Source: a phage. From it: a DNA stretch of 64,000 bases. The position numbers and the translations under genes were made by a program. This document shows positions 35-52,301 of the stretch, in pieces. Each line of letters opens with the position of its first letter. The first letter of the stretch is position 1. The DNA is taken from assembly GCA_016390365.1 (NCBI GenBank), contig GCA_016390365.1_3043.1; one strand, given 5' to 3'. The notes beneath the pieces were generated by a model. That model had not been told where the DNA came from. It did no database searches and was given only the letters and a program-made list of their open reading frames with translations.

Positions 35-295
35 ATGCTTCTGTGGTATATCATTAGTCTTCCTGCGTCATCATTCGTATTTTACTTCTTTGGAAAAAAT
101 CCAATGGACAGAATAGGAGATTGGGCTCTTTGTACTATATTTGTTAATATTTTTACTGCAGCAATATTATCCGGAATATGGTGTGTGTTCATTGAAATGC
201 CATGGCGGTTACGCAGACAACAAAAGATTTTTGATGAAAAGAAATATGCTCAAAATTTAAATAACTTTATCACTGAATGCAGGAAATTAAAATGA
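35..295 (+). CDS. hypothetical small membrane protein upstream of nudE
   Basis: 86-codon ORF with hydrophobic segments; overlaps nudE start; function unknown. Confidence 0.4.
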   Translation: MLLWYIISLPASSFVFYFFGKNPMDRIGDWALCTIFVNIFTAAILSGIWCVFIEMPWRLRRQQKIFDEKKYAQNLNNFITECRKLK

Positions 296-732
296 AAACA
301 TTATCAGCTGGTATTATCTTTATGACAGAAGATAAAGATTTATTTATGGGTCGGGTTACTGGTTCTCGTAAGCCTGGAATGATGGCACATCGTTGGGATA
401 TTCCAAAGGGCCGCGTAGAAAATTCTGATTTAAGCGCACTAGATGCAGCACGAAGAGAATGCTTAGAAGAGACTGGTTTTAGCAATTATAATCCAGACCT
501 TCTAGAAGACCTAGGTGTATTTAAATATTCTAGTAATAAAGACTTACAGTTATTTTATTATACGATTCCAGTAGAGCATGAGATGTTCAGAAATTGCTAT
601 TGTGAGTCTTATTTTGAAAATAAAGATGGCGTTATGATTCCAGAGATGGATGCTTTTGCTCTTATTCCTCGTACTCAGTGGCAATATGTGATGGGTCCTT
701 CACTTTACCGAATAATGAACAACCTCTTTTAA
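292..732 (+). CDS. nudE: Nudix hydrolase NudE (e.1)
   Basis: Nudix box GRVENSDLSALDAARRECLEETG; start moved to ATG 292 with SD aggaaa; N-terminus MKTLSAGIIFMTEDKD matches recalled T4 NudE. Confidence 0.85.
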   Translation: MKTLSAGIIFMTEDKDLFMGRVTGSRKPGMMAHRWDIPKGRVENSDLSALDAARRECLEETGFSNYNPDLLEDLGVFKYSSNKDLQLFYYTIPVEHEMFRNCYCESYFENKDGVMIPEMDAFALIPRTQWQYVMGPSLYRIMNNLF

Positions 733-1300: not shown

Positions 1301-1322
1301 CACAGTTAATTGGAGGGATAAA

Positions 1323-1739
1323 ATGACTCGTATTAATTTGACTTTAGTATCTGAACTTGCTGATCAACATTTAATCGCAGAATACCGTGAATTGCCACGT
1401 GTTTTTGGTATAGTTCGTAAACACGTGGCAAATGGTAAACGGGTTAAAGATTTTAAAATATCTTCCGAGTTTATTTTAGGTTCTGGTCATGTCACGTTCT
1501 TTTACGATAAGTTAGAATTTTTGCGAAAGCGTCAATCAGACATTATAACGGAATGCTTAAAACGTGGGTTTAGTATAAAAGATACTGAAGTTCCTGACAT
1601 CAGCGATATTCCAGCAGAATGGAAAAATGATTATAACCCATGCAAATCGGCTATTAAATTGAGTCAACAACGACTCGATGAAAAAATTTTAATGAAGCCA
1701 CACTGGTATAAATACTACGGCAAAAATATTTACATTTAA
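1323..1739 (+). CDS. denV: endonuclease V, pyrimidine-dimer DNA glycosylase
   Basis: 138 aa [17 protein letters not shown]..., matches recalled T4 DenV. Confidence 0.95.
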
Positions 1740-1748
1740 AGGAAACAC

Positions 1749-2222
1749 ATGAAAACATATCAAGAATTTATCACTGAAGCAGCTATTAATTCTCAAATTA
1801 TTGCTGAATCTTTTACTGATCTTTTGAAATTTAAAAAAGGTCAAAAAATCACTGCTGTATTAGATGATGGTACAGAAGTTGAGATGGATGTACAGGGATA
1901 TAATTATGCAGTAGATGGAAAACTGTATAATAAATCTCATGCTAAATTTGATTCATTTGACGATTTTGTTAATACAGTTGAAGATGAAAAAACTCGTAGA
2001 TCCATTGCAACTGGCGACGCTAAGGTTCTTATGGCACACGGTCATGAACGTATCCGCGCCAAACAGAATAAAATGGGCGAAGATAATTTTGCATTAGTTG
2101 GTTATCAATCTGGTAAACAAACTTATGGTTATCAGCGTACTGCTACCATGTATAATAAAAATGGTAAAATCGCTTTCGTGAATAGCAAAGGCTCTATTCA
2201 GTACGTCAAATCATTCAAATAA
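1749..2222 (+). CDS. internal head protein, IPII/IPIII-like, with capsid targeting sequence
   Basis: N-terminus MKTYQEFITEA matches the T4 internal-protein CTS (MKTYQEFIAE, cleaved after E by prohead protease); body differs from T4 IPs. Confidence 0.7.
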   Translation: MKTYQEFITEAAINSQIIAESFTDLLKFKKGQKITAVLDDGTEVEMDVQGYNYAVDGKLYNKSHAKFDSFDDFVNTVEDEKTRRSIATGDAKVLMAHGHERIRAKQNKMGEDNFALVGYQSGKQTYGYQRTATMYNKNGKIAFVNSKGSIQYVKSFK

Positions 2223-2375
2223 GCAAATAAGAAATATGGGAACAACCTGGACCTCATGATTCTATGAGGGATTCCCGCCAACCTGTAATAAGGTCGAGCC
2301 CAAGTGCGGTAATGGGTAAATACAGAAATGGACAATTCATGCGCCACGGAATGGCCCAAATTTAGAGAGAATAAA

Positions 2376-4090: not shown

Positions 4091-4368
4091 TGGCTCAATT
4101 AAGCGCAGGGTTTGGTTATGAGTATTATACTGCCCCTCGTCGTGTATCTATTGCTTCTAAGAAAATTCAAAGTCTTGATGATTTCCAGGAAGTAGTCCGT
4201 AAAGCTTTCCAGGACTATGCACGTTATCTTAAAGAAGATTCACAGGACTGTCTCGAAGAAGATGAAATTGCTTACTATGAGCAGCGTCTTGAACAGCTTA
4301 AAAACTTACATGAGGTTCGTGCAGAAGTTTCAAAGTCTATGAATAAATTGATTAGATTTAAAGAATAA
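4090..4368 (+). CDS. hypothetical protein (vs.3 position)
   Basis: 92-codon ORF starting [18 protein letters not shown] coupling. Confidence 0.5.
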
Positions 4369-4375
4369 CTGTTTA

Positions 4376-4412
4376 CTTTTCCTCTTGACTGTGGTATAAT
4401 TTTTCTATCAGT
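4376..4412 (+). promoter_or_regulatory. early promoter for regB
   Basis: gtttac 4381-4386, 17-bp spacer, tgtggtataat. Confidence 0.6.
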
Positions 4413-4427
4413 TAAGAGGAGAATAAC

Positions 4428-4889
4428 ATGACTATCAATACAGAAGTTTTTATCCGTCGAAATAAGCTTCGTCGTCACTTTGAGTCGGAGTTTCGTCAAA
4501 TTAACAATGAGATTCGTGAGGCATCAAAAGCAGCAGGAGTCTCATCGTTTCATCTAAAATATTCTCAGCATCTTCTTGATCGTGCAATTCAACGGGAGAT
4601 TGATGAGACATATGTTTTTGAATTATTCCATAAAATAAAAGACCATGTTTTAGAAGTTAATGAATTCCTGAGTATGCCTCCGCGTCCTGACATTGACGAG
4701 GATTTTATTGATGGGGTTGAATATCGTCCTGGACGTTTAGAAATCACAGATGGAAATCTTTGGCTTGGATTTACAGTTTGTAAGCCTAATGAGAAGTTCA
4801 AAAACCCGTCACTTCAATGCAGGATGGCAATTATCAACAGTCGTCGTTTACCAGGAAAGGCTTCTAAAGCAGTAATTAAAACTCAATGA
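4428..4889 (+). CDS. regB: RegB sequence-specific endoribonuclease
   Basis: 153 aa MTINTEVFIRRNKLRRHFESEFRQINNEIRE, matches recalled T4 RegB. Confidence 0.95.
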   Translation: MTINTEVFIRRNKLRRHFESEFRQINNEIREASKAAGVSSFHLKYSQHLLDRAIQREIDETYVFELFHKIKDHVLEVNEFLSMPPRPDIDEDFIDGVEYRPGRLEITDGNLWLGFTVCKPNEKFKNPSLQCRMAIINSRRLPGKASKAVIKTQ

Positions 4890-4896
4890 GGTAAAC

Positions 4897-5442
4897 ATGA
4901 GAAAAGCACTACTCGCTGGTCTATTGGCCATTTCAATGATGGCACATAGCTCCGAGCATACTTTCAGTAATGTCCAACTCGATAACATGCGTTACGCGTA
5001 TCAATTCGGGGAACAATTTTCTAAGGATGGAAAATATAAAACACACAAAAATATCCACAAGAGCGGATTAGGTCATATAATGGCTGCCATTTTATGGCAA
5101 GAAAGCTCTGGCGGAGTTAATTTAAAATCTAAACCAAAGCATCACGCCTACGGAATGTTCCAAAATTATTTGCCTACTATGCGAGCAAGAGTTAAGGAAC
5201 TTGGTTATAATATGACCGATGCTGAAATAAAAAGAATGTTGAATAAACGGTCCAATTCAGCTTCCTGGGCGTACATTGAACTTTCTTATTGGTTAAATAT
5301 ACATAAGGGCGATATAAGAAAAGCAATATCCTCTTATAATTCGGGATGGAATGTTAAAGCAGGTTCTAAATATGCTTCTGAAGTCCTAGAAAAGGCTAAT
5401 TACCTTAAAAATAATAAACTTTTGGAAATAGTAAATGACTAA
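4897..5442 (+). CDS. secreted lytic-transglycosylase-domain protein (vs.1 position)
   Basis: signal peptide MRKALLAGLLAISMMAHS; SLT-like motifs WQESSGG, YGMFQ, SYNSG. Confidence 0.6.
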   Translation: MRKALLAGLLAISMMAHSSEHTFSNVQLDNMRYAYQFGEQFSKDGKYKTHKNIHKSGLGHIMAAILWQESSGGVNLKSKPKHHAYGMFQNYLPTMRARVKELGYNMTDAEIKRMLNKRSNSASWAYIELSYWLNIHKGDIRKAISSYNSGWNVKAGSKYASEVLEKANYLKNNKLLEIVND

Positions 5443-5776
5443 AATTTTGGTTTTATGTATAGGATTAATTTCATTTTCTGCGTTAGCAGATACATCATAT
5501 ACTGAAATTAGAGAGTATGTAAACCGTACTGCAGCGGATTATTGCGGGAAAAATAAAGCATGCCAAGCTGAATTTGCACAGAAATTAATATATGCATATA
5601 AAGACGGAGAAAGAGATAAATCAAGCAGATACAAAAATGATACATTGTTAAAACGATATGCTAAAAAGTGGAATACCTTAGAATGTTCAGTTGCGGAGGA
5701 AAAAGATAAAGCCGCTTGTCATTCAATGGTTGACCGTTTGGTAGATTCTTATAATCGAGGATTGAGTACTAGATGA
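5435..5776 (+). CDS. secreted small protein (vs position)
   Basis: N-terminal signal-like MTKILVLCIGLISFSALA; synteny with T4 vs. Confidence 0.45.
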   Translation: MTKILVLCIGLISFSALADTSYTEIREYVNRTAADYCGKNKACQAEFAQKLIYAYKDGERDKSSRYKNDTLLKRYAKKWNTLECSVAEEKDKAACHSMVDRLVDSYNRGLSTR

Positions 5777-6252
5777 TTGTAAAATATATCAAGGGCGATA
5801 TTGTCGCCCTATTTCTTCAAGGTAATATTATTGCGCACGGGTGCAATTGTTTTCATACTATGGGTTCAGGTGTAGCGGGTCAATTAGCCAGAGCCTATCC
5901 CAAAATTTTAGAAATAGATAAAACCACTACTGAGTACGGTTCTCGCGATAAATTAGGCGATATGTCTATTGTTTTTAAACATAAACCTAATGGTTTTGGC
6001 ATATGTTATAACTTGTATACGCAATACGAACCAGGTCCTAATCTTGATTATGGTGCTTTAGTAAACTGCATGATAGAATTAAATCTACAGGCAGAAACCC
6101 TTTTGTTTAAACCAGTAATTTACATTCCACGCATAGGTTGTGGTATTGCTGGCGGCGATTGGGATAAGGTTTCTAAATTAATCGACATGTTTACTCCTGA
6201 TATTGATTTAATAGTGGTGGATTATGAAAGTACATTACCCACATCCGTTTGA
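5773..6252 (+). CDS. macro-domain protein (TARG1/Poa1p-like ADP-ribose processing fold)
   Basis: motif HGCNCFHTMGSGVAGQL resembles the HCISxDCxMGAGIA signature of TARG1-type macro domains. Confidence 0.6.
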   Translation: MIVKYIKGDIVALFLQGNIIAHGCNCFHTMGSGVAGQLARAYPKILEIDKTTTEYGSRDKLGDMSIVFKHKPNGFGICYNLYTQYEPGPNLDYGALVNCMIELNLQAETLLFKPVIYIPRIGCGIAGGDWDKVSKLIDMFTPDIDLIVVDYESTLPTSV

Positions 6253-6436
6253 TCCTAAAAACAAAGTGGAAATTATTCGTCAATGGGAACGCATTTGCCG
6301 TACTAAATGTCCAATTAATAGTCCACATGATGTAGATAAAGACTACATTGGAACATTCGTTGAATATACCTTTATTGATAAGAAAGGTCGTAAACAACAT
6401 GTAGAAGAATATTGCTTAAAGGTTACATGGTTATGA
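6224..6436 (+). CDS. hypothetical protein
   Basis: 70-codon ORF; start uncertain (overlap with upstream gene). Confidence 0.4.
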   Translation: MKVHYPHPFDPKNKVEIIRQWERICRTKCPINSPHDVDKDYIGTFVEYTFIDKKGRKQHVEEYCLKVTWL

Positions 6437-6639
6437 GCCAAACTAGTATTCTTAAAAATGCCCACTGTGAAAAGTGTAAGTGGCCTGTTGTTTTTGCTTT
6501 ATGTAATGATGAAATGGCTTGTGATTTCGATTATTGGTGCTATTGTTCTAATAAAGGATGCATCAATCATAAAGGTGAAGGATTTTATTCAGGATTTTAT
6601 CCTTATCCTGATTTCGTTAAAGAAGGTAAACCGAAATGA
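6412..6639 (+). CDS. hypothetical Cys-rich small protein
   Basis: CEKCKW...CNDEMACDFDYWCYCSNKGC, likely metal-binding. Confidence 0.4.
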   Translation: MLKGYMVMSQTSILKNAHCEKCKWPVVFALCNDEMACDFDYWCYCSNKGCINHKGEGFYSGFYPYPDFVKEGKPK

Positions 6640-6809
6640 ATAGTTTTGAGTTACAATATGAAGTGTTACGTGAGCTTGATAATTTAATTGAACTCGCTGT
6701 CAATAAAGGTTTTGCCATTGGAATCGGTCAAAAAGATACTGGTCATTTAACTATGGAAATATTTAAGCAAAAGCGAATTATTTTAAAACTCCTGGAAATT
6801 AATATATGA
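6636..6809 (+). CDS. hypothetical small protein
   Basis: 57-aa ORF MNSFELQYEV..., not in ORF track; ATGA coupling to next gene. Confidence 0.35.
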   Translation: MNSFELQYEVLRELDNLIELAVNKGFAIGIGQKDTGHLTMEIFKQKRIILKLLEINI

Positions 6810-6991
6810 GTCTGAGTAAAGAACAAAAAGATAAATTGTTTGAGCTTATCCATGAACTTCTAGATGAGCATACAGAAGCAAACACCTTTTATGATGAATA
6901 CGGCCCGCTATCTCCCGATCAGCAAGAAGAATTTGCTGATCGGTTTGATAAGAAAGAAAACGAATTAATAGCTTATGTGAATATGCTTTAA
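6806..6991 (+). CDS. hypothetical acidic small protein
   Basis: 61-codon ORF immediately upstream of tk. Confidence 0.4.
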   Translation: MSLSKEQKDKLFELIHELLDEHTEANTFYDEYGPLSPDQQEEFADRFDKKENELIAYVNML

Positions 6992-7000
6992 GAAGGTGAT

Positions 7001-7582
7001 ATGGCGAGTTTAATTTTTACTTACGCAGCAATGAATGCTGGAAAATCTGCTTCTCTTTTGACTGCTGCACATAATTATAAAGAACGCGGAATGGGTGTAT
7101 TAGTTCTTAAGCCTGCTATTGATACTCGTGATTCTGTCTGTGAAGTCGTTTCTCGCATTGGAATTAAGCAGGAAGCGAATATTATTACGGATGATATGGA
7201 TATTTTTGAGTTCTATAAATGGGCTGAAGCACAAAAAGATATTCATTGTGTATTTGTAGATGAAGCTCAGTTTTTAAAAACTGAACAGGTGCATCAATTA
7301 AGTCGAATTGTTGATACATATAATGTTCCTGTTATGGCTTATGGGCTAAGGACTGATTTCGCTGGAAAATTATTTGAAGGTTCTAAAGAACTTTTGGCGA
7401 TTGCAGATAAACTTATTGAACTAAAGGCAGTTTGTCATTGTGGTAAAAAGGCTATTATGACAGCTCGATTAATGGAAGATGGAACACCGGTTAAAGAAGG
7501 TAATCAAATCTGTATTGGTGATGAAATTTATGTTTCTTTGTGTAGAAAACATTGGAATGAATTAACTAAAAAGCTCGGTTAG
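7001..7582 (+). CDS. tk: thymidine kinase
   Basis: 193 aa; P-loop AAMNAGKSASLL; zinc ribbon CHCGKK...C...C; matches recalled T4 Tk. Confidence 0.95.
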   Translation: MASLIFTYAAMNAGKSASLLTAAHNYKERGMGVLVLKPAIDTRDSVCEVVSRIGIKQEANIITDDMDIFEFYKWAEAQKDIHCVFVDEAQFLKTEQVHQLSRIVDTYNVPVMAYGLRTDFAGKLFEGSKELLAIADKLIELKAVCHCGKKAIMTARLMEDGTPVKEGNQICIGDEIYVSLCRKHWNELTKKLG

Positions 7583-7591
7583 TGCAAAAGT

Positions 7592-7599
7592 TATAAATA
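7592..7599 (+). promoter_or_regulatory. late-promoter box TATAAATA
   Basis: exact TATAAATA about 25 nt upstream of ATG 7625. Confidence 0.4.
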
Positions 7600-7624
7600 G
7601 GTTTATCTAACTAAAGGGGTATAT

Positions 7625-7837
7625 ATGCTACAATTAACTGAAAAGCAACTTCGCAATCTTACTGTTCTTCAATTAGATGAAATTCGTAGGGAAGTTGGAA
7701 ATATCATTTCAGCTTTGCGTCGGGAAGTATCACTCAACCAATCTCCGGCAGACTATACTAGATTGCGAAATTTTGAAAAATACCTTGATAAAGTTAAGGC
7801 CGTGCATCGGCATAAAGTAAATACAGGACAAAAATGA
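7625..7837 (+). CDS. hypothetical protein (rI.1 position)
   Basis: 70-codon ORF upstream of rI. Confidence 0.5.
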
Positions 7838-9534: not shown

Positions 9535-9723
9535 GTGATGACAAGTGAGCAGGCTTTTAAATTAAGAGAATTAATTGAAACATATAGCAAAGCTGTTCAT
9601 ACAGCAACAGTTATTGATGAATCAGCTTTCTCCGGACATGCTAACAAGATTAAATACAAAACTCTTATGGAAGAAGCTAAAGTAAATCTTGATTCTTATA
9701 TTGAAACTTTAATTGGTAAATAA
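9535..9723 (+). CDS. hypothetical protein
   Basis: 62-codon ORF. Confidence 0.4.
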   Translation: MMTSEQAFKLRELIETYSKAVHTATVIDESAFSGHANKIKYKTLMEEAKVNLDSYIETLIGK

Positions 9724-9724
9724 T

Positions 9725-10267
9725 ATGAAAGCTGTAATTGAAACAACTGATTTGTTCGGTGACCTGGTTATCGAAAAACGTGGTAATGTATACGTTCTGA
9801 CGCAGGAAGACGATAGTATTACTATTCTTCCTATGGAACTGGCTGCGATTTTATCTTATGCTCCCTCAGGAGTTACCGGTGTAACTAATATTACAGACGA
9901 CCTCCAAGTTCGTTTTTATCGTGGCCTTTACGGCGGTAATATTGAAACTGAATTTATGTGTCTTTCTATCAGCAATTGGGCAACATTCGTTGTCAAGGTG
10001 AAAGAATTCTTAGAATCTGAAACAGTCGAAACACCCGAAAAGACTAAACTTCAATGGGCTAAAGATCGCGGTGCTAACATTATTAATCCAGTAGCTGCAA
10101 ATTATACTACGACTTTGGATGTCAAGACTTCTTATGAAGATGGTGATGTCTTAACTATTCGTCAAATTGATGATTTTCGATCGTATATTGTCACATTTAC
10201 CAAAGACGAAGCTATTGCGCTAAAGACTTATCTCGATTCTGTCATTCCAACTATGATTTCAAAGTGA
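9725..10267 (+). CDS. hypothetical protein, paralog of the next ORF
   Basis: start ATG 9725; C-terminus TFTKDEAIALKTYLDSVIPTM resembles SLSKSEAEAMIKYLTTVTPSM of 10274..10795. Confidence 0.55.
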   Translation: MKAVIETTDLFGDLVIEKRGNVYVLTQEDDSITILPMELAAILSYAPSGVTGVTNITDDLQVRFYRGLYGGNIETEFMCLSISNWATFVVKVKEFLESETVETPEKTKLQWAKDRGANIINPVAANYTTTLDVKTSYEDGDVLTIRQIDDFRSYIVTFTKDEAIALKTYLDSVIPTMISK

Positions 10268-10273
10268 GGAAAT

Positions 10274-10795
10274 ATGTTTATTTCAAGTGGAAGTGGTTTA
10301 ATTCGTGTTGAATTTAAAAATGACATCTTCCTTATTCAAGGAGATGATATTATTAAAATGAGTTATGATGAAATTAAGAAAATTTGTAATGCTCTTGAAA
10401 GTCATGGAAAAGTGAACGCTGTTATTGATATTGGTGATTTATGGGTGACACTTTATGAAGTATCCGAAGGATTTAATATTGAAGATGAAAACAACATCTT
10501 AGCTATTGATAAAAGAAGCGATTTGTTTGATGTGTTAAAAGTTTATGAACAGTCAAACGGTGGAAGAAAAGCTGTATTGATTTATCAAAAACCACATTCA
10601 TGTGGAACTGCTTCAATCATTTCAGATATTGAAGATGAAACTGATACTTATATGTGTGTTTTAAAAGCTGGTGGTGACCGTCATCCGGATTTTATTTCTA
10701 TTCGTCAAAACAATGGAGAAATTTCATTATCAAAATCAGAAGCTGAAGCTATGATTAAGTATTTAACAACTGTTACACCTTCAATGAAAGGATAA
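10274..10795 (+). CDS. hypothetical protein, paralog of the previous ORF
   Basis: 173-codon ORF with shared C-terminal motif. Confidence 0.55.
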   Translation: MFISSGSGLIRVEFKNDIFLIQGDDIIKMSYDEIKKICNALESHGKVNAVIDIGDLWVTLYEVSEGFNIEDENNILAIDKRSDLFDVLKVYEQSNGGRKAVLIYQKPHSCGTASIISDIEDETDTYMCVLKAGGDRHPDFISIRQNNGEISLSKSEAEAMIKYLTTVTPSMKG

Positions 10796-10797
10796 TT

Positions 10798-10998
10798 ATG
10801 ATTATTAATGAAAACTCTTGGCACTATAAATTATTCAAACTGTTTAACGACGAATGGAAACGACCTAAGACACTGTGTGCATACTTTTGGTCTATTGTTA
10901 TCCCTACATTTTTCGTTTCTTTTTTCGGATGTACTATACTCGCAGGTCTAACTATTATCTGTGCAGAAATCATACAGAAATGGCTTATTTTTTGGTAG
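10798..10998 (+). CDS. hypothetical membrane protein (N-terminal part, possible frameshifted gene)
   Basis: hydrophobic TM segment; ORF ends at a T6 run where the next frame continues. Confidence 0.4.
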   Translation: MIINENSWHYKLFKLFNDEWKRPKTLCAYFWSIVIPTFFVSFFGCTILAGLTIICAEIIQKWLIFW

Positions 10999-11260
10999 TT
11001 TATGGACTCTTATTCCATCAGCATTTATACTTGCCATTTTGCTTATTTTACTTATTATTGGTTCATTTGTTATTCCTGCACAACTGCATGAAAAATATAA
11101 AGATTATAAATGGAAAAAGGATTATGCTTTACATGTAGAAAATATTGATAGGGCGTATAAAGGTTTACCTCCTATTCAACCCAAGAAATCTATTATCGTC
11201 GAATTTTTAAAAGCGCGTAAAGCTAAAGTATGTCCTGTTATTGAATATAAGGCTGAATGA
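10961..11260 (+). CDS. hypothetical membrane protein (C-terminal part, possible frameshifted gene)
   Basis: no ATG (track start is GTG); strongly hydrophobic LIPSAFILAILLILLIIGSFVIP. Confidence 0.4.
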   Translation: MQKSYRNGLFFGSLWTLIPSAFILAILLILLIIGSFVIPAQLHEKYKDYKWKKDYALHVENIDRAYKGLPPIQPKKSIIVEFLKARKAKVCPVIEYKAE

Positions 11261-19583: not shown

Positions 19584-19795
19584 TGCTCGAAGGAACTGAT
19601 TATATCCATGATTACCGCGGAAGCGCGGTATATGTAGGTGATGAAGTTGCAGTTTACTATGGGTATGGAACTTTAATGACAGCCAAGGTTATTCAAATTA
19701 AAAATAACCGTGCTAAACTCGAAGTTTATTATTCTAATGGCGAAAAGTCTATTTCTAAGTGGAAATACGGCGATTGCATGGTCAAACTGGGGTAA
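19580..19795 (+). CDS. hypothetical protein
   Basis: 71-codon ORF, ATGA coupling. Confidence 0.45.
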   Translation: MMLEGTDYIHDYRGSAVYVGDEVAVYYGYGTLMTAKVIQIKNNRAKLEVYYSNGEKSISKWKYGDCMVKLG

Positions 19796-19797
19796 AT

Positions 19798-19968
19798 ATG
19801 ATTTACGATATTAGTGTATCAAGAACTCCATCAATGGTTACTATTCCAGCTGAAGAACTAGATCGTCTTCAGAAAATTGAAGAGCTTCTTTGGGAAATTG
19901 AATCTGATTTGCCATCAGGACTAGAATCCTGGATTGATTATGAAGAACTTAATAAGCTTCGGGGTTAA
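19798..19968 (+). CDS. hypothetical small protein
   Basis: start ATG 19798 after SD ggggtaaat. Confidence 0.4.
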   Translation: MIYDISVSRTPSMVTIPAEELDRLQKIEELLWEIESDLPSGLESWIDYEELNKLRG

Positions 19969-39782: not shown

Positions 39783-40523
39783 ATGATTAGTGACTCTATG
39801 ACAGTTGAAGAAATCCGTCTTCATTTGGGGCTTGCATTAAAAGAAAAAGATTTCGTAGTTGATAAAACCGGTGTTAAAACTATTGAAATTATTGGCGCAT
39901 CATTTGTAGCAGATGAACCGTTTATTTTTGGCGCTCTTAATGATGAATACATTCAGCGCGAACTTGAATGGTATAAATCTAAGAGCTTGTTTGTTAAAGA
40001 TATTCCAGGTGAAACACCAAAGATTTGGCAGCAGGTAGCATCTTCTAAAGGCGAAATTAACTCGAATTATGGTTGGGCTATTTGGTCAGAAGATAACTAT
40101 GCCCAGTATGATATGTGTTTAGCTGAACTTGGTCAAAATCCTGATTCTCGGCGTGGTATCATGATTTATACTCGTCCATCCATGCAATTTGACTACAATA
40201 AAGATGGTATGTCAGATTTCATGTGTACTAATACAGTACAGTACCTGATTCGTGATAAGAAAGTCAATGCAGTAGTAAGCATGCGCTCAAATGACGTGGT
40301 CTTCGGATTCCGTAATGATTATGCATGGCAAAAATATGTATTAGATAAATTAGTATCTGATTTGAATGCAGGCGATTCAACTCGTCAGTATAAAGCAGGT
40401 TCTATTATATGGAATGTTGGAAGTCTTCATGTATATTCTCGTCATTTTTACTTGGTTGATCATTGGTGGAATACTGGCGAAACTCATATTGTGAAAAAAG
40501 ATTATAACGGTGAGTGGAAATGA
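39783..40523 (+). CDS. 42: dCMP hydroxymethylase gp42
   Basis: 246 aa; thymidylate-synthase-like fold; matches recalled T4 gp42. Confidence 0.95.
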   Translation: MISDSMTVEEIRLHLGLALKEKDFVVDKTGVKTIEIIGASFVADEPFIFGALNDEYIQRELEWYKSKSLFVKDIPGETPKIWQQVASSKGEINSNYGWAIWSEDNYAQYDMCLAELGQNPDSRRGIMIYTRPSMQFDYNKDGMSDFMCTNTVQYLIRDKKVNAVVSMRSNDVVFGFRNDYAWQKYVLDKLVSDLNAGDSTRQYKAGSIIWNVGSLHVYSRHFYLVDHWWNTGETHIVKKDYNGEWK

Positions 40524-41362
40524 TTCAATTCGTAATTCCAAGCTATCAACGTGTAGGGGCAGTTTCTGCCCTTGATATGTTTCCGACTGATTATGAACCT
40601 CATATCGTAGTACGTGAACATGAAGAAAAAGCTTATTATGATGCCTATGGGTCTAGAGCTAAAATTATAACTATTCCTGATGATGTAAACGGAATTGCCG
40701 GTACTCGTAAAGCAATTACTGATATGTATGCAGGTCAACGAATCTGGATGATTGACGATGATACTACTATTCGTATGAGTTTAATGCGAAAAAGAGATGA
40801 CCGTCGTTGTGTAGATAAAGTCAATCAATTGACTCGTGAACAGTTCTATGAATTGATTCAATATGTTGAGGATGCCATGGATTGCGGGTATTATCATGGC
40901 CATGCTCGTCTACCAATTTTTAAAATTACTTCATCTTGGGGTAATTATCGTGAAAATTCATATGGATTTACGAATACATGGTATGACCTCGGAAAACTTA
41001 CGACAGAACAAATTGGGTATGGAAAAATTGATTTATGCGAAGATATGTATGCATTTCTCAATTTAATTAATCAAGGTTATCCGCATTTGGCCTTGTTCAA
41101 ATATCTGGTTGTATCTGGAAAAGCACAAGCTCCTGGCGGGTGTAGTTCAATTCGTAGTAATTCTAAACATAATAGAGCGCTTGAGCAAATCAATAGAGAG
41201 TTTCCAGAGCAAGCTCGTTGGAAAACTTCTAATATCGAAAAACGAAAATCGTTGGGTGAAGAAGACGAGCCATTAAAGGTTCTTCGCATGTGTGTTTCGC
41301 GCAAAGAAAAATCAGAAGCATTTCATAAGTTTAATGCTATTCATCCGATAGCAGTTGATTAA
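40520..41362 (+). CDS. DNA glucosyltransferase, GT-A-like with DxD motif (beta-alpha-gt type rather than T4 beta-gt)
   Basis: 280 aa with IWMIDDDTTI DxD motif; occupies the bgt slot between 42 and uvsX but does not resemble T4 beta-gt. Confidence 0.6.
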   Translation: MIQFVIPSYQRVGAVSALDMFPTDYEPHIVVREHEEKAYYDAYGSRAKIITIPDDVNGIAGTRKAITDMYAGQRIWMIDDDTTIRMSLMRKRDDRRCVDKVNQLTREQFYELIQYVEDAMDCGYYHGHARLPIFKITSSWGNYRENSYGFTNTWYDLGKLTTEQIGYGKIDLCEDMYAFLNLINQGYPHLALFKYLVVSGKAQAPGGCSSIRSNSKHNRALEQINREFPEQARWKTSNIEKRKSLGEEDEPLKVLRMCVSRKEKSEAFHKFNAIHPIAVD

Positions 41363-41439
41363 TGCCTAAATTTATTGTGTTATAATTACTCTATCTTTAA
41401 CCAGTGAGGAAAATATAATGATGCCTATGGAAAAAATGA

Positions 41440-42621
41440 ATGTCTATTGCAGATTTAAAATCCCGTTTGATTAAAGCTTCCACTTCTAAAATGACTGCTG
41501 AACTGACTACATCTAAATTCTTTAATGAAAAGGATGTAATTCGTACAAAAATTCCAATGCTTAATATTGCTATTTCTGGTGCGATTGATGGCGGCATGCA
41601 GTCTGGTTTAACTATTTTCGCAGGGCCTTCTAAACACTTTAAATCAAATATGTCTTTGACTATGGTTGCGGCGTATTTGAACAAATATCCTGACGCGGTT
41701 TGTCTATTCTATGATAGTGAATTTGGTATTACTCCAGCTTATTTGCGATCCATGGGAGTTGACCCGGAACGAGTAATTCATACGCCAATCCAGTCAGTTG
41801 AACAGCTGAAAATTGATATGGTGAATCAGCTTGAAGCTATTGAGCGCGGTGAAAAAGTTATTGTATTCATCGACTCAATTGGTAATATGGCTTCTAAGAA
41901 AGAAACGGAAGATGCCTTGAATGAAAAATCTGTGGCAGATATGACTCGTGCTAAATCACTGAAGTCATTATTCCGTATTGTTACTCCTTACTTTAGCATT
42001 AAAAATATTCCATGTGTTGCGGTTAACCATACAATTGAAACAATTGAAATGTTTAGTAAAACCGTGATGACAGGTGGTACAGGCGTAATGTATTCGGCTG
42101 ATACCGTATTCATTATCGGTAAGCGTCAGATTAAAGATGGTTCTGATCTTCAGGGGTATCAATTTGTTCTAAATGTAGAAAAATCTCGTACCGTTAAAGA
42201 AAAAAGTAAATTCTTTATTGATGTTAAATTTGACGGTGGTATCGATCCTTATTCTGGATTGTTAGATATGGCTCTAGAATTAGGATTTGTAGTAAAACCT
42301 AAAAATGGCTGGTATGCTCGTGAATTTCTTGACGAAGAAACCGGCGAGATGATTCGCGAAGAAAAATCTTGGCGTGCAAAAGATACTAACTGCACTACAT
42401 TCTGGGGTCCTTTATTTAAGCATCAACCATTCCGAGATGCTATTAAACGTGCTTATCAGTTAGGTGCTATTGATAGTAATGAAATTGTTGAAGCTGAAGT
42501 CGATGAATTGATTAACTCAAAGGTTGAAAAATTTAAATCTCCAGAAAGTAAAAGTAAATCAGCTGCTGATTTAGAAACTGACCTCGAGCAGTTAAGTGAT
42601 ATGGAAGAATTTAATGAATAA
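41440..42621 (+). CDS. uvsX: RecA-like recombinase UvsX
   Basis: 393 aa; Walker A GPSKHFKS; closely matches recalled T4 UvsX. Confidence 0.95.
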   Translation: MSIADLKSRLIKASTSKMTAELTTSKFFNEKDVIRTKIPMLNIAISGAIDGGMQSGLTIFAGPSKHFKSNMSLTMVAAYLNKYPDAVCLFYDSEFGITPAYLRSMGVDPERVIHTPIQSVEQLKIDMVNQLEAIERGEKVIVFIDSIGNMASKKETEDALNEKSVADMTRAKSLKSLFRIVTPYFSIKNIPCVAVNHTIETIEMFSKTVMTGGTGVMYSADTVFIIGKRQIKDGSDLQGYQFVLNVEKSRTVKEKSKFFIDVKFDGGIDPYSGLLDMALELGFVVKPKNGWYAREFLDEETGEMIREEKSWRAKDTNCTTFWGPLFKHQPFRDAIKRAYQLGAIDSNEIVEAEVDELINSKVEKFKSPESKSKSAADLETDLEQLSDMEEFNE

Positions 42622-45250: not shown

Positions 45251-45883
45251 ATGATTTATTATATGCACAAAAATCCACCGTTTAAATACGGTAAATTTCC
45301 TGATGCACAATGTTATAATATAACGCCTGATGAAAATAACCGTGGATATCTTATTGGCACAATTTTTGTAATTGTTAAAGATAACGAAATCGTTGCCTGG
45401 GCAGATTTTAAAGGTACAACATATGATGTTAATCCGGTGCCTTTCACATATTACAATTTAATGGATTTGGCATACGATTATAATTGGTTTAATCATGATA
45501 CTTTGGCTCATATTGAAGGTGTAGGATTTGATATTTCATATTCGGAATACACTTTAAGCCCTATGAGTCGAGCCCATAAAGAACCTGAATATTTTTCATT
45601 TAGGAAACGTGTAAACTTTAAACGCAGCACAGAGTATGTCGGTGGAATTTTTGTTAAAGATAATCGAATTATTCGTATTAATTATCCTTTGAGCGTTAGT
45701 CAAAAAGATATTGATGTTGATTTAGATTTCACTGAAAATAATATTAATAATATTGCTTCTGTGTATTTTGGTATCGATCACAAAATTGTAATATGTGGAT
45801 ATGAATTACCGTTTGAAGAACAGCCTAAAGTAAAAGTTTCTATTGACGATCAAATTTTTAATGCTTTTATGAATAAAGGTTAA
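45251..45883 (+). CDS. 61.2-like protein with internal repeats
   Basis: 210 aa; repeated VKDN-containing motifs; C-terminus IDDQIFNAFMNKG. Confidence 0.6.
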   Translation: MIYYMHKNPPFKYGKFPDAQCYNITPDENNRGYLIGTIFVIVKDNEIVAWADFKGTTYDVNPVPFTYYNLMDLAYDYNWFNHDTLAHIEGVGFDISYSEYTLSPMSRAHKEPEYFSFRKRVNFKRSTEYVGGIFVKDNRIIRINYPLSVSQKDIDVDLDFTENNINNIASVYFGIDHKIVICGYELPFEEQPKVKVSIDDQIFNAFMNKG

Positions 45884-45887: not shown

Positions 45888-46241
45888 TATAGTTCTGAAT
45901 TTTCATATTTAAAAATGGAAAAAATTTCATACGATTTTATAGATGAAAAGGTTTATTACAGTTTCCATGAACCGCGTTTTAATAGTGAGGTTGGGTTTAT
46001 TGTAGTAAAAGACAATTTCATTTTAAAGATATATTCGGCATTAAAGGATTTTCACTACGAAAATATTAACCTAAAATTTGATAAAGAAAACGTTCGTAAT
46101 TGTGCAGTAACAATTACAGGAAATAAAGGTGCATGTGTTATGCTATCTGATGAAATTAATGATTTGCTAAATGATGCAGAAAATATTACTGCGCCATCTA
46201 TTGATGACCAAATTTTTAATGCTTTTATGAATAGAGGTTAA
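45885..46241 (+). CDS. hypothetical protein sharing C-terminal module with 61.2-like gene
   Basis: 118 aa ending IDDQIFNAFMNRG. Confidence 0.5.
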   Translation: MYSSEFSYLKMEKISYDFIDEKVYYSFHEPRFNSEVGFIVVKDNFILKIYSALKDFHYENINLKFDKENVRNCAVTITGNKGACVMLSDEINDLLNDAENITAPSIDDQIFNAFMNRG

Positions 46242-47705: not shown

Positions 47706-48224
47706 ATGGCATACTTTAATGAATGTTCACAACTGATTGAAGGCGCTGATAAAGCTCAAAATGAATACTGGGATATTCTCGGTGATGAAAAAGACCCGTT
47801 GCAAGTTATGCTTGATATGCAGAAATCTCTGCAGGTTCGTTTAGCTAAAGATAAACCTGAATATAACCGTCATCCTGATGATTTGGCTACTGCGGGTGAA
47901 GTTGTTGATTGGCTGCGTAATCAGAAAGATTATATTGATGATGAATTCCGCGAACTATTGACTTCTCTTGGTGGTATGAGCAATGGTGAAAAAGATGCAT
48001 CTGCTGTATGGAAGCCTTGGAAAGCTCAACATGGTGAACGACGTGAAACTCTGATTACTGATTTGTCTCCACAAGACCAGTTGGAAATTAAATTCGAAAT
48101 GATTGATATTCTTCATTTCGTTCTGAACATGTTCCAAGGCCTCGGTCTTACGGCTGAAGAAATCTTTAAACTTTATTATCTGAAAAATGCTGAAAACTTC
48201 GCTCGTCAAGACCGAGGTTATTAA
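47706..48224 (+). CDS. 56: dCTPase/dUTPase gp56
   Basis: 172 aa from ATG 47706 (MAYFNECSQLIEGADKAQNEYWDILGDEKDP), matches recalled T4 gp56. Confidence 0.9.
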   Translation: MAYFNECSQLIEGADKAQNEYWDILGDEKDPLQVMLDMQKSLQVRLAKDKPEYNRHPDDLATAGEVVDWLRNQKDYIDDEFRELLTSLGGMSNGEKDASAVWKPWKAQHGERRETLITDLSPQDQLEIKFEMIDILHFVLNMFQGLGLTAEEIFKLYYLKNAENFARQDRGY

Positions 48225-48424
48225 TGGCTCGTTTAAATAAACGCCAGCTTAAGAAAGCCCACAAGAAACGTATTGACCAGCTATTTAAAAATTATGACAA
48301 GGAGCTCACATACGAGCTCTTATCTAATCAGCTTCGTGTAGTTGATTGGGGTGTAGAAGAAGGTCTTGATGAAATTTTTGTCAGTAAAGAAGCCTTAAAA
48401 TTAATTATAGAGCATTCAAAATGA
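48224..48424 (+). CDS. hypothetical basic small protein
   Basis: 66-codon ORF, TAATG coupling to 56. Confidence 0.45.
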   Translation: MARLNKRQLKKAHKKRIDQLFKNYDKELTYELLSNQLRVVDWGVEEGLDEIFVSKEALKLIIEHSK

Positions 48425-48594
48425 AAATATCCAAAGAAGAATTTATTAGACGACAAAAAGCTTTAATTAATTTATACGAGTGGTATGCCTATCAACTTAA
48501 AGTAGATAGCTCTAATATAAATGCTGTAATGGCTTTATATAAACAAATTCAAGATGAACACGAATTCCTGGCACAAGTTTTCATTGAAGACTGA
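48421..48594 (+). CDS. hypothetical small protein
   Basis: 57-aa ORF MKISKEEFIRRQKAL; not in track. Confidence 0.4.
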   Translation: MKISKEEFIRRQKALINLYEWYAYQLKVDSSNINAVMALYKQIQDEHEFLAQVFIED

Positions 48595-51082: not shown

Positions 51083-51694
51083 ATGATTATTAATCTTGCA
51101 GATGTTGAACAGTTATCTATAAAAGCTGAAAGCGTTGATTTTCAATATGATATGTATAAAAAAGTCTGTGAAAAATTTACTGACTTTGAGCAATCTGTTC
51201 TTTGGCAATGTATGGAAGCTAAAAAGAATGAAGCTCTTCATAGGCAGTTGAATAAAATCATTAAAAAGCATTTAACTAAATCACCTTATCAGCTATATCG
51301 TGGTATATCAAAATCAACAGAAGAACTTATTAAAGATTTACAAGTCGGAGAAGTGTTTTCAACGAACAGGGTAGATTCATTTACTACTAGTTTGCACATA
51401 GCATGTGGTTTTTCTTATGTGTATTTCACTGAAATAATATTTCGCTTAAAAACTAATAAAGCTTTTAATTATTCTGACCATATCAGCGATATTATACTTT
51501 CTTCTCCTAATACTGAGTTTAAGTACACGTATGAAGATACTGATGGATTAGATTCAGAGCGTACTGATAACTTAATGATGATTGTGCGTGAACAAGAATG
51601 GATGATTCCAATTGGAAAGTATAGAATAACTTCATTTCAAAAGAAAAATTACACGATTCATTTGGAACATTTAAAGTTTATGATATTGAGGTAG
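51083..51694 (+). CDS. modB: ADP-ribosyltransferase ModB
   Basis: 203 aa; R-S-ExE pattern: R73 (LYRG), TTS, EQE 170-172. Confidence 0.75.
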   Translation: MIINLADVEQLSIKAESVDFQYDMYKKVCEKFTDFEQSVLWQCMEAKKNEALHRQLNKIIKKHLTKSPYQLYRGISKSTEELIKDLQVGEVFSTNRVDSFTTSLHIACGFSYVYFTEIIFRLKTNKAFNYSDHISDIILSSPNTEFKYTYEDTDGLDSERTDNLMMIVREQEWMIPIGKYRITSFQKKNYTIHLEHLKFMILR

Positions 51695-51698
51695 TTGA

Positions 51699-52301
51699 AT
51701 GAAATACTCAGTAATGCAACTAAAAGATTTTAAAATAAAATCAATGGATGCATCGGTGCGTGCTTCTATTCGTGAAGAATTACTTTCTGAAGGATTTAAT
51801 TTATCTGAAATTGAACTTTTAATTCATTGTATTACCAACAAACCAGATGACCATACTTGGTTAAATGAAATAATCAAATCTCGTTTGGAACCAAACGATA
51901 AACCTCTTTGGAGAGGTGTTCCAGCTGAGACTAAGCAAGTATTAAATCAAGGAATTGATATTATTACATTTGATAAAGTAGTATCAGCTTCATATGATAA
52001 AAATATAGCTCTGCATTTTGCTTCTGGTTTAGAGTATAACACACAAGTTATTTTTGAATTCAAAGCTCCTATGGTATTCAATTTCCAGGAGTATGCTATA
52101 AAAGCTCTACGCTGTAAAGAATACAATCCAAACTTTAAGTTTCCAGATAGCCATCGTTATCGTAATATGGAATTAGTTTCAGATGAACAAGAAGTAATGA
52201 TACCAGCTGGAAGTGTATTTAGAATTGCAGATAGATATGAGTACAAAAAGTATTCAACATACACTATCTATACTCTTGATTTTGAAGGATTTAATCTATA
52301 A
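51699..52301 (+). CDS. modA: ADP-ribosyltransferase ModA
   Basis: 200 aa; R72 (WRG), SAS, EQE 163-165, matching recalled ModA catalytic residues R72/E165. Confidence 0.75.
   Translation: MKYSVMQLKDFKIKSMDASVRASIREELLSEGFNLSEIELLIHCITNKPDDHTWLNEIIKSRLEPNDKPLWRGVPAETKQVLNQGIDIITFDKVVSASYDKNIALHFASGLEYNTQVIFEFKAPMVFNFQEYAIKALRCKEYNPNFKFPDSHRYRNMELVSDEQEVMIPAGSVFRIADRYEYKKYSTYTIYTLDFEGFNL

Follow-up and report, generated by a model that had tools for sequence, protein, structure and literature searches.

A diverged allele of the T4 anti-DarT gene tk.4 (adfM) in a T4-like Tequatrovirus encodes a predicted ALC1-like macrodomain protein with a glutamine-type active site

Phages T4 and T2 without adfA and adfN were reported to be still resistant to DarTG2, so that another factor was expected (PMC11825919). 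When a T4 transposon library was put on DarTG2-expressing E. coli (HIDEN-SEQ), tk.4 was the sole significant hit, and a clean tk.4 knockout made T4 sensitive to DarTG2; the gene was named adfM, for anti-DarT factor macrodomain (bioRxiv 10.1101/2025.11.20.689424, November 2025). In the same preprint the removal of ADP-ribose from DNA by T4 Tk.4 is inferred, and enzymatic removal only 'seems likely'. Together with AdfA and AdfN, which act against DarTG1, Tk.4/AdfM gives the T-even phages a layered anti-DarT toolkit. Among cellular macrodomains, SCO6735 is 54% identical to BT1257 and carries Gln85 at the position of K80 in DarG and K84 in TARG1, and its Q85A and Q85E variants are inactive (PMC9411070). 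SCO6735 cleaves thymidine-linked ADP-ribose (ADPr) on single-stranded DNA (ssDNA) faster than DarG or TARG1, shows no activity on guanine-ADPr and rescued E. coli from DarT; thymine-linked ADPr is also removed by TARG1 (PMC9411070). A further phage protein, PhiKZ gp104, was reported to strip DarT2-made T-ADPr in vitro (Cell Rep 2026, PMC13309987).

The window is the whole stretch of phage DNA analysed here, 64,000 nucleotides of assembly GCA_016390365.1. It is colinear throughout with T4 coordinates 67766->1, reversed, with about a dozen mosaic gaps (blastn). A megablast search with 5000..7600 returned 838 phage records, nearly all Tequatrovirus or T4-like, 456 of which span at least 80% of the query; the best matches are 98-99% identical. 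Two BASEL phages that carry the window-type tk.4 allele, FriedrichMiescher and FriedrichZschokke, match 5000..7600 at 98.3%. By these comparisons the phage is a T4-like Tequatrovirus. The genes regB, vs.1, vs, tk.4 and tk.3 form one co-oriented, tightly packed string, and the features of this region are as follows:

4372..4400, + strand, sigma-70-type promoter-like site (TTTACT-17-TATAAT with TG) upstream of regB, from a consensus scan only
4428..4889, + strand, regB (Pfam REGB_T4, E=6e-69)
4897..5442, + strand, vs.1, SLT-domain protein (Pfam/PHROG matches)
5435..5776, + strand, vs, valyl-tRNA-synthetase modifier (Pfam/PHROG matches)
5773..6252, + strand, tk.4/adfM orthologue, stand-alone macrodomain protein of 159 aa (ATG to TGA)
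6224..6436, + strand, tk.3 homologue (DUF7202; Pfam PF23832; 93% identity to T4 Tk.3)
7001..7582, thymidine kinase, Tk (Pfam/PHROG matches)

The start codon of tk.4 lies on the stop codon of vs (a 4-nt overlap, ATGA), tk.3 starts 29 nt within the 3' end of tk.4, and three or four small ORFs lie between tk.4 and the thymidine kinase gene. Antisense ORFs across 5773..6252 are short (35 and 69 aa). Protein identity to T4 is 99% for RegB, 100% for Vs.1, 97% for Vs, 93% for Tk.3 and 99% for Tk. The T4 gene in the vs/tk.3 interval is tk.4 (RefSeq: 'phosphatase; contains A1pp phosphatase motif'), whose product matches the window protein with 57.4% identity (155 aa, 97% coverage, E ~7e-69; tblastn 2e-56). 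Because T4 tk.4 occupies the same position between vs and tk.3, ORF 5773..6252 is assigned as its orthologue (tk.4 = adfM, NP_049723) from order and similarity. An earlier note, made from the letters of this DNA, had placed the ORF in an accessory islet; that description fits only loosely, for growth on plain K-12 does not need the gene and the early region that holds it is plastic, but hundreds of relatives, as well as T4 and T2, keep it at this position.

A promoter scan of 4200..7700 gave 11 sites, no excess over the 14.0±3.2 of shuffled sequence, and none of them makes a credible promoter just before tk.4. The site at 4372..4400, the one good sigma-70-like site in the vicinity, might possibly serve as an early promoter for regB-vs.1-vs-tk.4, and early co-transcription of the regB-vs.1-vs-tk.4-tk.3 string is a reasonable expectation. 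A GC-rich hairpin (AGGGCGATATTGTCGCCCT) at 5792..5810, in codons 7-13 of tk.4 and the same in T4, was flagged by the terminator scan; as it folds with ordinary energy (z=-1.2), it was rejected as a feature.

The stretch further downstream, 6438..7000, hardly matches T4 at the DNA level, with a replacement of the tk.2/tk.1 region. An extra ORF of 75 aa at 6412..6639 matches Pfam PF23895 ('phage zinc binding domain'), an ORF of 57 aa at 6636..6809 belongs to PHROG 3452, and an ORF of 61 aa at 6806..6991 is 54% identical to T4 Tk.2. Near the start of the window the denV homologue (1319..2233 region) is 78% identical to T4 denV, and the adjacent 1613..2233 has no T4 DNA match; T4 has the internal-protein genes ipII and ipIII there, and by this comparison the denV/ipII-ipIII region is another mosaic replacement. 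Against the first 72 kb of T4, 9550..11255, 19585..19966, 40506..41451, 48188..48594 and other segments are also without a blastn match. The T4 coordinates on either side put mobD at the place of 9550..11255, and segA and beta-gt at that of 40506..41451; in the unmatched segments homing endonucleases were probably gained or lost and the set of glucosyltransferases altered.

The earlier note had read ORF 5773-6252 as a TARG1/Poa1p-class macrodomain protein from the motif HGCNCFHTMGSGVAGQL. The motif reads exactly as claimed, at residues 22-38, and Pfam, the PDB profile matches and the predicted structure agree on the class, although the TARG1 catalytic dyad is absent. The hit to Pfam Macro PF01661, at 33.1 bits (curated cut-off 22; E=6.2e-8), covers positions 2-117 of the 118-position profile, and PHROG 335, a family that PHROG labels 'phosphatase / A1pp motif', is matched with E=1e-71. 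A single-query sequence search of the PDB returned BT1257 (1.7e-10), Poa1p (1.2e-9), SCO6735 (8e-8), the Mycobacterium tuberculosis DarG macrodomain (2.4e-5) and human TARG1 (8e-3). With a family profile built from 114 homologues, reaching down to ~38% identity, the corresponding E-values were 7.5e-19, 2.4e-14, 5.5e-15, 2.2e-11 and 4e-16. The structure prediction and structure search proposed in the earlier note gave a macro fold: the AlphaFold2 model, made with the 114-sequence alignment (pLDDT 93.9, pTM 0.89), has a beta-alpha-beta architecture with the three-layer alpha/beta/alpha macro fold in a single domain of 159 aa, and Foldseek returned TARG1, Poa1p, BT1257 and DarG, all at probability 1.00. 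The nearest structural neighbours in Foldseek are ALC1-like members, set apart from the MacroD, viral and PARG classes. Both glycine-rich ADP-ribose/diphosphate loops are present and conserved in the family (MGSGVAG, residues 30-36; IGCGIAGG, residues 121-128). By sequence and model the window protein is an ALC1-like macrodomain (the class of TARG1, DarG, Poa1p and SCO6735), and it is predicted to bind ADP-ribose. The features of the putative active site are as follows:

5836..5886, + strand, residues 22-38 (HGCNCFHTMGSGVAGQL), first ADP-ribose-binding loop, with H22, G23, N25, C26, G33 and A35 invariant in the 114-sequence alignment
6022..6024, + strand, CAA codon of Gln84, which the profile-to-TARG1 alignment sets opposite the catalytic K84 of TARG1 (K80 in DarG)
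6127..6162, + strand, residues 119-130 (PRIGCGIAGGDW), second (diphosphate-binding) loop, aligned to TARG1 MPRIGCGLDRLQW

The first loop HGCNCFHTMGSGVAGQL aligns with Poa1p HSCNCNGSWGGGIAYQL; H24 and N27 of SCO6735, at the positions equivalent to H22 and N25, were targets of mutagenesis (PMC9411070). Gln84 is found in 114 of 114 homologues, T4-type sequences included, as are H22 and N25, and D49, N80 and Y82 are further invariant residues of this alignment. Of the second-loop residues, P119 and W130 never vary and G122, G124, A126, G127 and G128 hardly do; A126 occupies the column of the catalytic D125 of TARG1 in the profile-to-TARG1 alignment. The Lys84/Asp125 dyad of TARG1 is absent, with Q84 and A126 in its place, and so is the catalytic lysine of DarG (K80), the equivalent column holding a Gln (TARG1 alignment and published SCO6735/DarG/TARG1 superposition). 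BT1257 also has a Gln at the Q84 column of the profile alignment. When the family profile was aligned by HMM directly to PhiKZ gp104, which is of the Lys type, K78 fell two residues off Q84 with no gap; this alignment is ambiguous, and the catalytic column was assigned from the TARG1 alignment, which has high confidence, and from the equivalence published on structural grounds. The signature of the SCO6735/BT1257 type, a Gln at the catalytic-Lys position with the His and Asn of the first loop, is present, and the extended 'mobile loop' of SCO6735/BT1257 is missing: compared with the phage profile, BT1257 has 6 extra residues following the Gln. Since Gln84 is invariant and BT1257 and SCO6735 share the Gln, the active site appears to be lysine-free and of the SCO6735 type; it resembles that of SCO6735/BT1257, not that of TARG1 or DarG. 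Given the absent lysine and the SCO6735-type Gln in the T4-type AdfM family, its chemistry probably differs from that of DarG, its published comparator. A bacterial homologue 40% identical to the Gln-type phage macrodomain is encoded by a stand-alone gene on the Pelagimonas phthalicica chromosome (locus L004, 6001..6459); no DarT, other ART or toxin-antitoxin genes occur in the neighbourhood of this protein (P0090). The Gln-type family is therefore not restricted to phages.

The window protein is 57% identical to T4 Tk.4, whereas the flanking proteins are 93-100% identical to their T4 counterparts. The strong divergence lies in one segment:

5900..6283, + strand, strongly diverged (swapped) segment relative to T4 by DNA identity, comprising tk.4 codons ~43-159 and ~20 codons at the start of tk.3

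As far as the tk.4 start the DNA matches T4 at 98-100%; the initial ~125 nt of tk.4 match at 85-87%, and between ~5900 and ~6260 the value drops to 42-58%, apart from one 60-nt block at 73%, before reaching 93-100% again by ~6284. The first 42 codons are 83% identical to T4 Tk.4 at the protein level; their third positions are 76% identical, and those of codons 43-155 are 40% identical, near saturation. This bounded pattern argues for recombinational replacement rather than gradual drift and indicates that the tk.4 allele was acquired by a recombinational swap. In the phage collection, 319 records carry the window-type allele at no less than 90% protein identity and 117 carry an allele of the 60-80% type; T4 and T2 fall in the 57% type, and the T2 allele is exactly identical to that of T4. 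Tequatroviruses thus hold at least two deeply diverged alleles at the tk.4 locus, the DarTG2 phenotype being known for the T4 type. No DarTG2 data on the window-type allele were found in the published literature; the published data all concern the T4 type, so the same activity in the window allele is read from its conserved catalytic and binding residues. It is also conceivable, although we regard it as rather unlikely, that the tk.4/adfM locus is an arms-race hotspot in which the swap was selected for different specificities, that the alleles are not functionally interchangeable, and that T4-type AdfM is the first Gln-type phage counter-defence enzyme. The specificities in play could be DarT2 variants, sequence contexts, uracil-ADPr on RNA or direct binding of the toxin. 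If this were true, T4-type AdfM would be the first lysine-free, Gln-dependent phage counter-defence enzyme of the SCO6735 type, with a short mobile loop.

Counter-defence against DarT, offered as one option in the earlier note, is directly supported, the T4 orthologue being needed on a DarTG2 host (bioRxiv 10.1101/2025.11.20.689424). The genetics of the T4 allele, the enzymology of SCO6735 and the invariant active-site residues together make hydrolysis of thymidine-ADPr on ssDNA the best-supported mechanism. The function that we hold to be most likely, and probable, is that Tk.4 takes ADP-ribose added by DarT2 off phage ssDNA, using a Gln-type active site. The window tk.4 would be expressed from the early-region string regB-vs.1-vs-tk.4; as host DarT2 puts ADP-ribose on thymidines of single-stranded phage DNA, Tk.4/AdfM would bind the ADP-ribose and hydrolyse the base-ribose bond, a replicable template would be restored, and the phage would escape the DarTG2 abortive defence. 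With Gln84 in place of the catalytic lysine, catalysis is expected to proceed by Gln-assisted positioning and an activated water: Gln84, with His22 and Asn25, would position the substrate and the water would attack, no lysine being involved. Fold, family, orthology and residue pattern of the window protein come from its own sequence and model; by analogy it would hydrolyse DNA-linked ADP-ribose, and the 57%-identical allele would keep the function seen in T4. The anti-DarTG2 phenotype is established for the T4 allele only, and 43% of residues differ between it and the window allele.

By sequence the closest active-site motif is that of Poa1p, an ADP-ribose-1''-phosphate phosphatase, so a small-molecule substrate may be considered: the protein would be a Poa1p-like hydrolase of ADP-ribose-1''-phosphate, O-acetyl-ADP-ribose or an NAD-derived immune signal or toxin (Thoeris-type, RES-type), not of modified DNA. 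The first-loop motif and H22 match Poa1p (H23; an H23A mutant structure is in the PDB), a survey argued that phage macrodomains act mostly on soluble ADPr derivatives, and the bacterial homologue stands alone with no DarT neighbour. The names 'phosphatase / A1pp motif' given to the Tk.4 family by PHROG and RefSeq point the same way, but the label is a homology transfer, and we know of no phosphatase activity in phage members of the family. The orthologue has a single known phenotype, specific to DarTG2, which modifies DNA, and no Thoeris phenotype for tk.4 is reported in the literature found, which leaves the Thoeris-related role suggested in the earlier note without support. Activities on small molecules and on DNA may coexist; as the main role, a small-molecule one is improbable.

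Since SCO6735 also inhibits DarT by binding, the protection given by Tk.4 need not be purely catalytic (PMC9411070). In its strict form this would mean that DarT2 is inhibited directly or that ADP-ribosylated sites are shielded, hydrolysis being dispensable. The inactive SCO6735 variant Q85A remains a strong DarT inhibitor in vitro (PMC9411070), the phage factor AdfB appears to bind DarT directly, and rapid allele divergence outside the active-site loops would fit co-evolution with a protein partner. However, the ADP-ribose-binding and putative catalytic residues are invariant to ~38% identity, which argues for an enzymatic function, and the one-domain protein of 159 aa lacks the C-terminal DarT-binding domain of DarG; protection by binding alone is quite improbable.

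Removal of uracil-linked or other ADPr from phage transcripts modified by host RNA-targeting ARTs has a chemical precedent, as SCO6735 (efficiently), TARG1 and DarG hydrolyse uracil-linked ADPr on single-stranded RNA (PMC13036486), but no bacterial defence by a uracil-RNA ART appears in the literature found, and an RNA activity would probably extend the thymine-ADPr activity rather than form a separate role. Papers dealing with RNA uracil-ADPr or with synthetic ADPr-oligonucleotides have no data for phage Tk.4. Hydrolysis of uracil-ADPr on RNA is plausible by analogy as a side activity of Tk.4 and highly improbable as its purpose.

The earlier note had also proposed an eraser of the marks set by phage ModA/ModB, which in a wider form would remove Alt/ModA/ModB marks from host proteins, or RNAylation, and so tune host takeover. 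The modB/modA homologues are indeed present in the window, at 51083..52301 as the earlier note had them, and a writer and an eraser within one genome are a common arrangement. The target of Alt, ModA and ModB is arginine, whose ADPr adduct is taken off by ARH/DraG-type enzymes; to our knowledge arginine-ADPr is not a substrate of ALC1-like macrodomains. With ALC1-like macrodomains cleaving Glu/Asp esters, thymine and uracil linkages (PMC9411070, PMC13036486), tk.4 lying 45 kb from modA/modB and the T4 Tn-seq hit in tk.4 reported as DarTG2-specific (bioRxiv 10.1101/2025.11.20.689424), this role is scarcely credible, and it was rejected on substrate chemistry and the DarTG2-specific depletion of T4 tk.4 insertions.

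Other genes of the window also concern ADP-ribose. The modB homologue (51083..51699) has a 1-nt deletion near 51637 relative to T4 (AACTTC-ATTTC here, AACTTCTATTTC in T4), which frameshifts the last ~19 codons, so that the protein ends in RITSFQKKNYTIHLEHLKFMILR before the stop here and in KITSISKEKLHDSFGTFKVYDIEVVE before the stop in T4; the EQEWMIP motif, upstream of the frameshift, is intact. Either a genuine variant C-terminus or an error in sequencing could account for the frameshift. A homologue of T4 gp61.2 (AdfA), described in the literature as an anti-DarTG1 factor, lies at 45251..45880 and is 73% identical to the T4 protein, with a second, weak and partial gp61.2 match just downstream (45945..46238, 35% identity). 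The NudE Nudix hydrolase at 277..729 is 98.7% identical to that of T4, which is annotated as active on ADP-ribose, NADH and FAD, and is thus another ADP-ribose-metabolising gene of the window.

Compared with the described systems, yeast Poa1p (PDB 6LFQ-6LFU), an ADP-ribose-1''-phosphate phosphatase, is ~20 residues longer than the window protein, and its match splits into two stretches in the single-sequence search. Human TARG1/OARD1 (PDB 4J5R/4J5S) is the top Foldseek match (E ~1e-9, TM 0.71-0.81) at ~21% sequence identity. PhiKZ gp104, also called 'AdfM' (PMC13309987), keeps a DarG-like N23/K78 pair where the window protein has Gln, and its BLASTP match to the window protein covers just 33 residues; since the lysine is retained and the similarity marginal, the two 'AdfM' proteins appear to be different branches of the class. 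The DarG macrodomain (PDB 5M3I, 5M31) keeps the catalytic K80, again a Gln in the window protein, and DarG carries a DarT-binding domain at its C-terminus and its gene adjoins darT, whereas the window protein has no such domain and its gene lies between vs and tk.3; the window protein scores 27.8 bits against the cut-off of 250 of the NCBIfam DarG model. SCO6735 of Streptomyces coelicolor (PDB 5E3B) and BT1257 (PDB 2AFC/2FG1), the top PDB match of the window protein, are products of cellular genes and have a longer mobile loop (~5 residues over TARG1/DarG); the SCO6735 lysines K34 and K89, targets of mutagenesis, correspond to S32 and G88. T4 Tk.4/AdfM has the same locus, vs-tk.4-tk.3, and the same fold class, with 155 aa against 159 aa here, and shares H22, N25, Q84, P119 and W130 with the window protein. 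It differs in the second loop (IGAGIGKGNW in T4, IGCGIAGGDW here) and at the C-terminus, which in the window protein has 4 more residues, its coding sequence overlapping tk.3 by 29 nt. The gene itself was known before, as an allele of an annotated T4 counter-defence gene that has been genetically characterised since late 2025; what goes beyond the literature found is the Gln-type, lysine-free active site, the two diverged alleles and the short mobile loop, which are incremental refinements of the T4 system.
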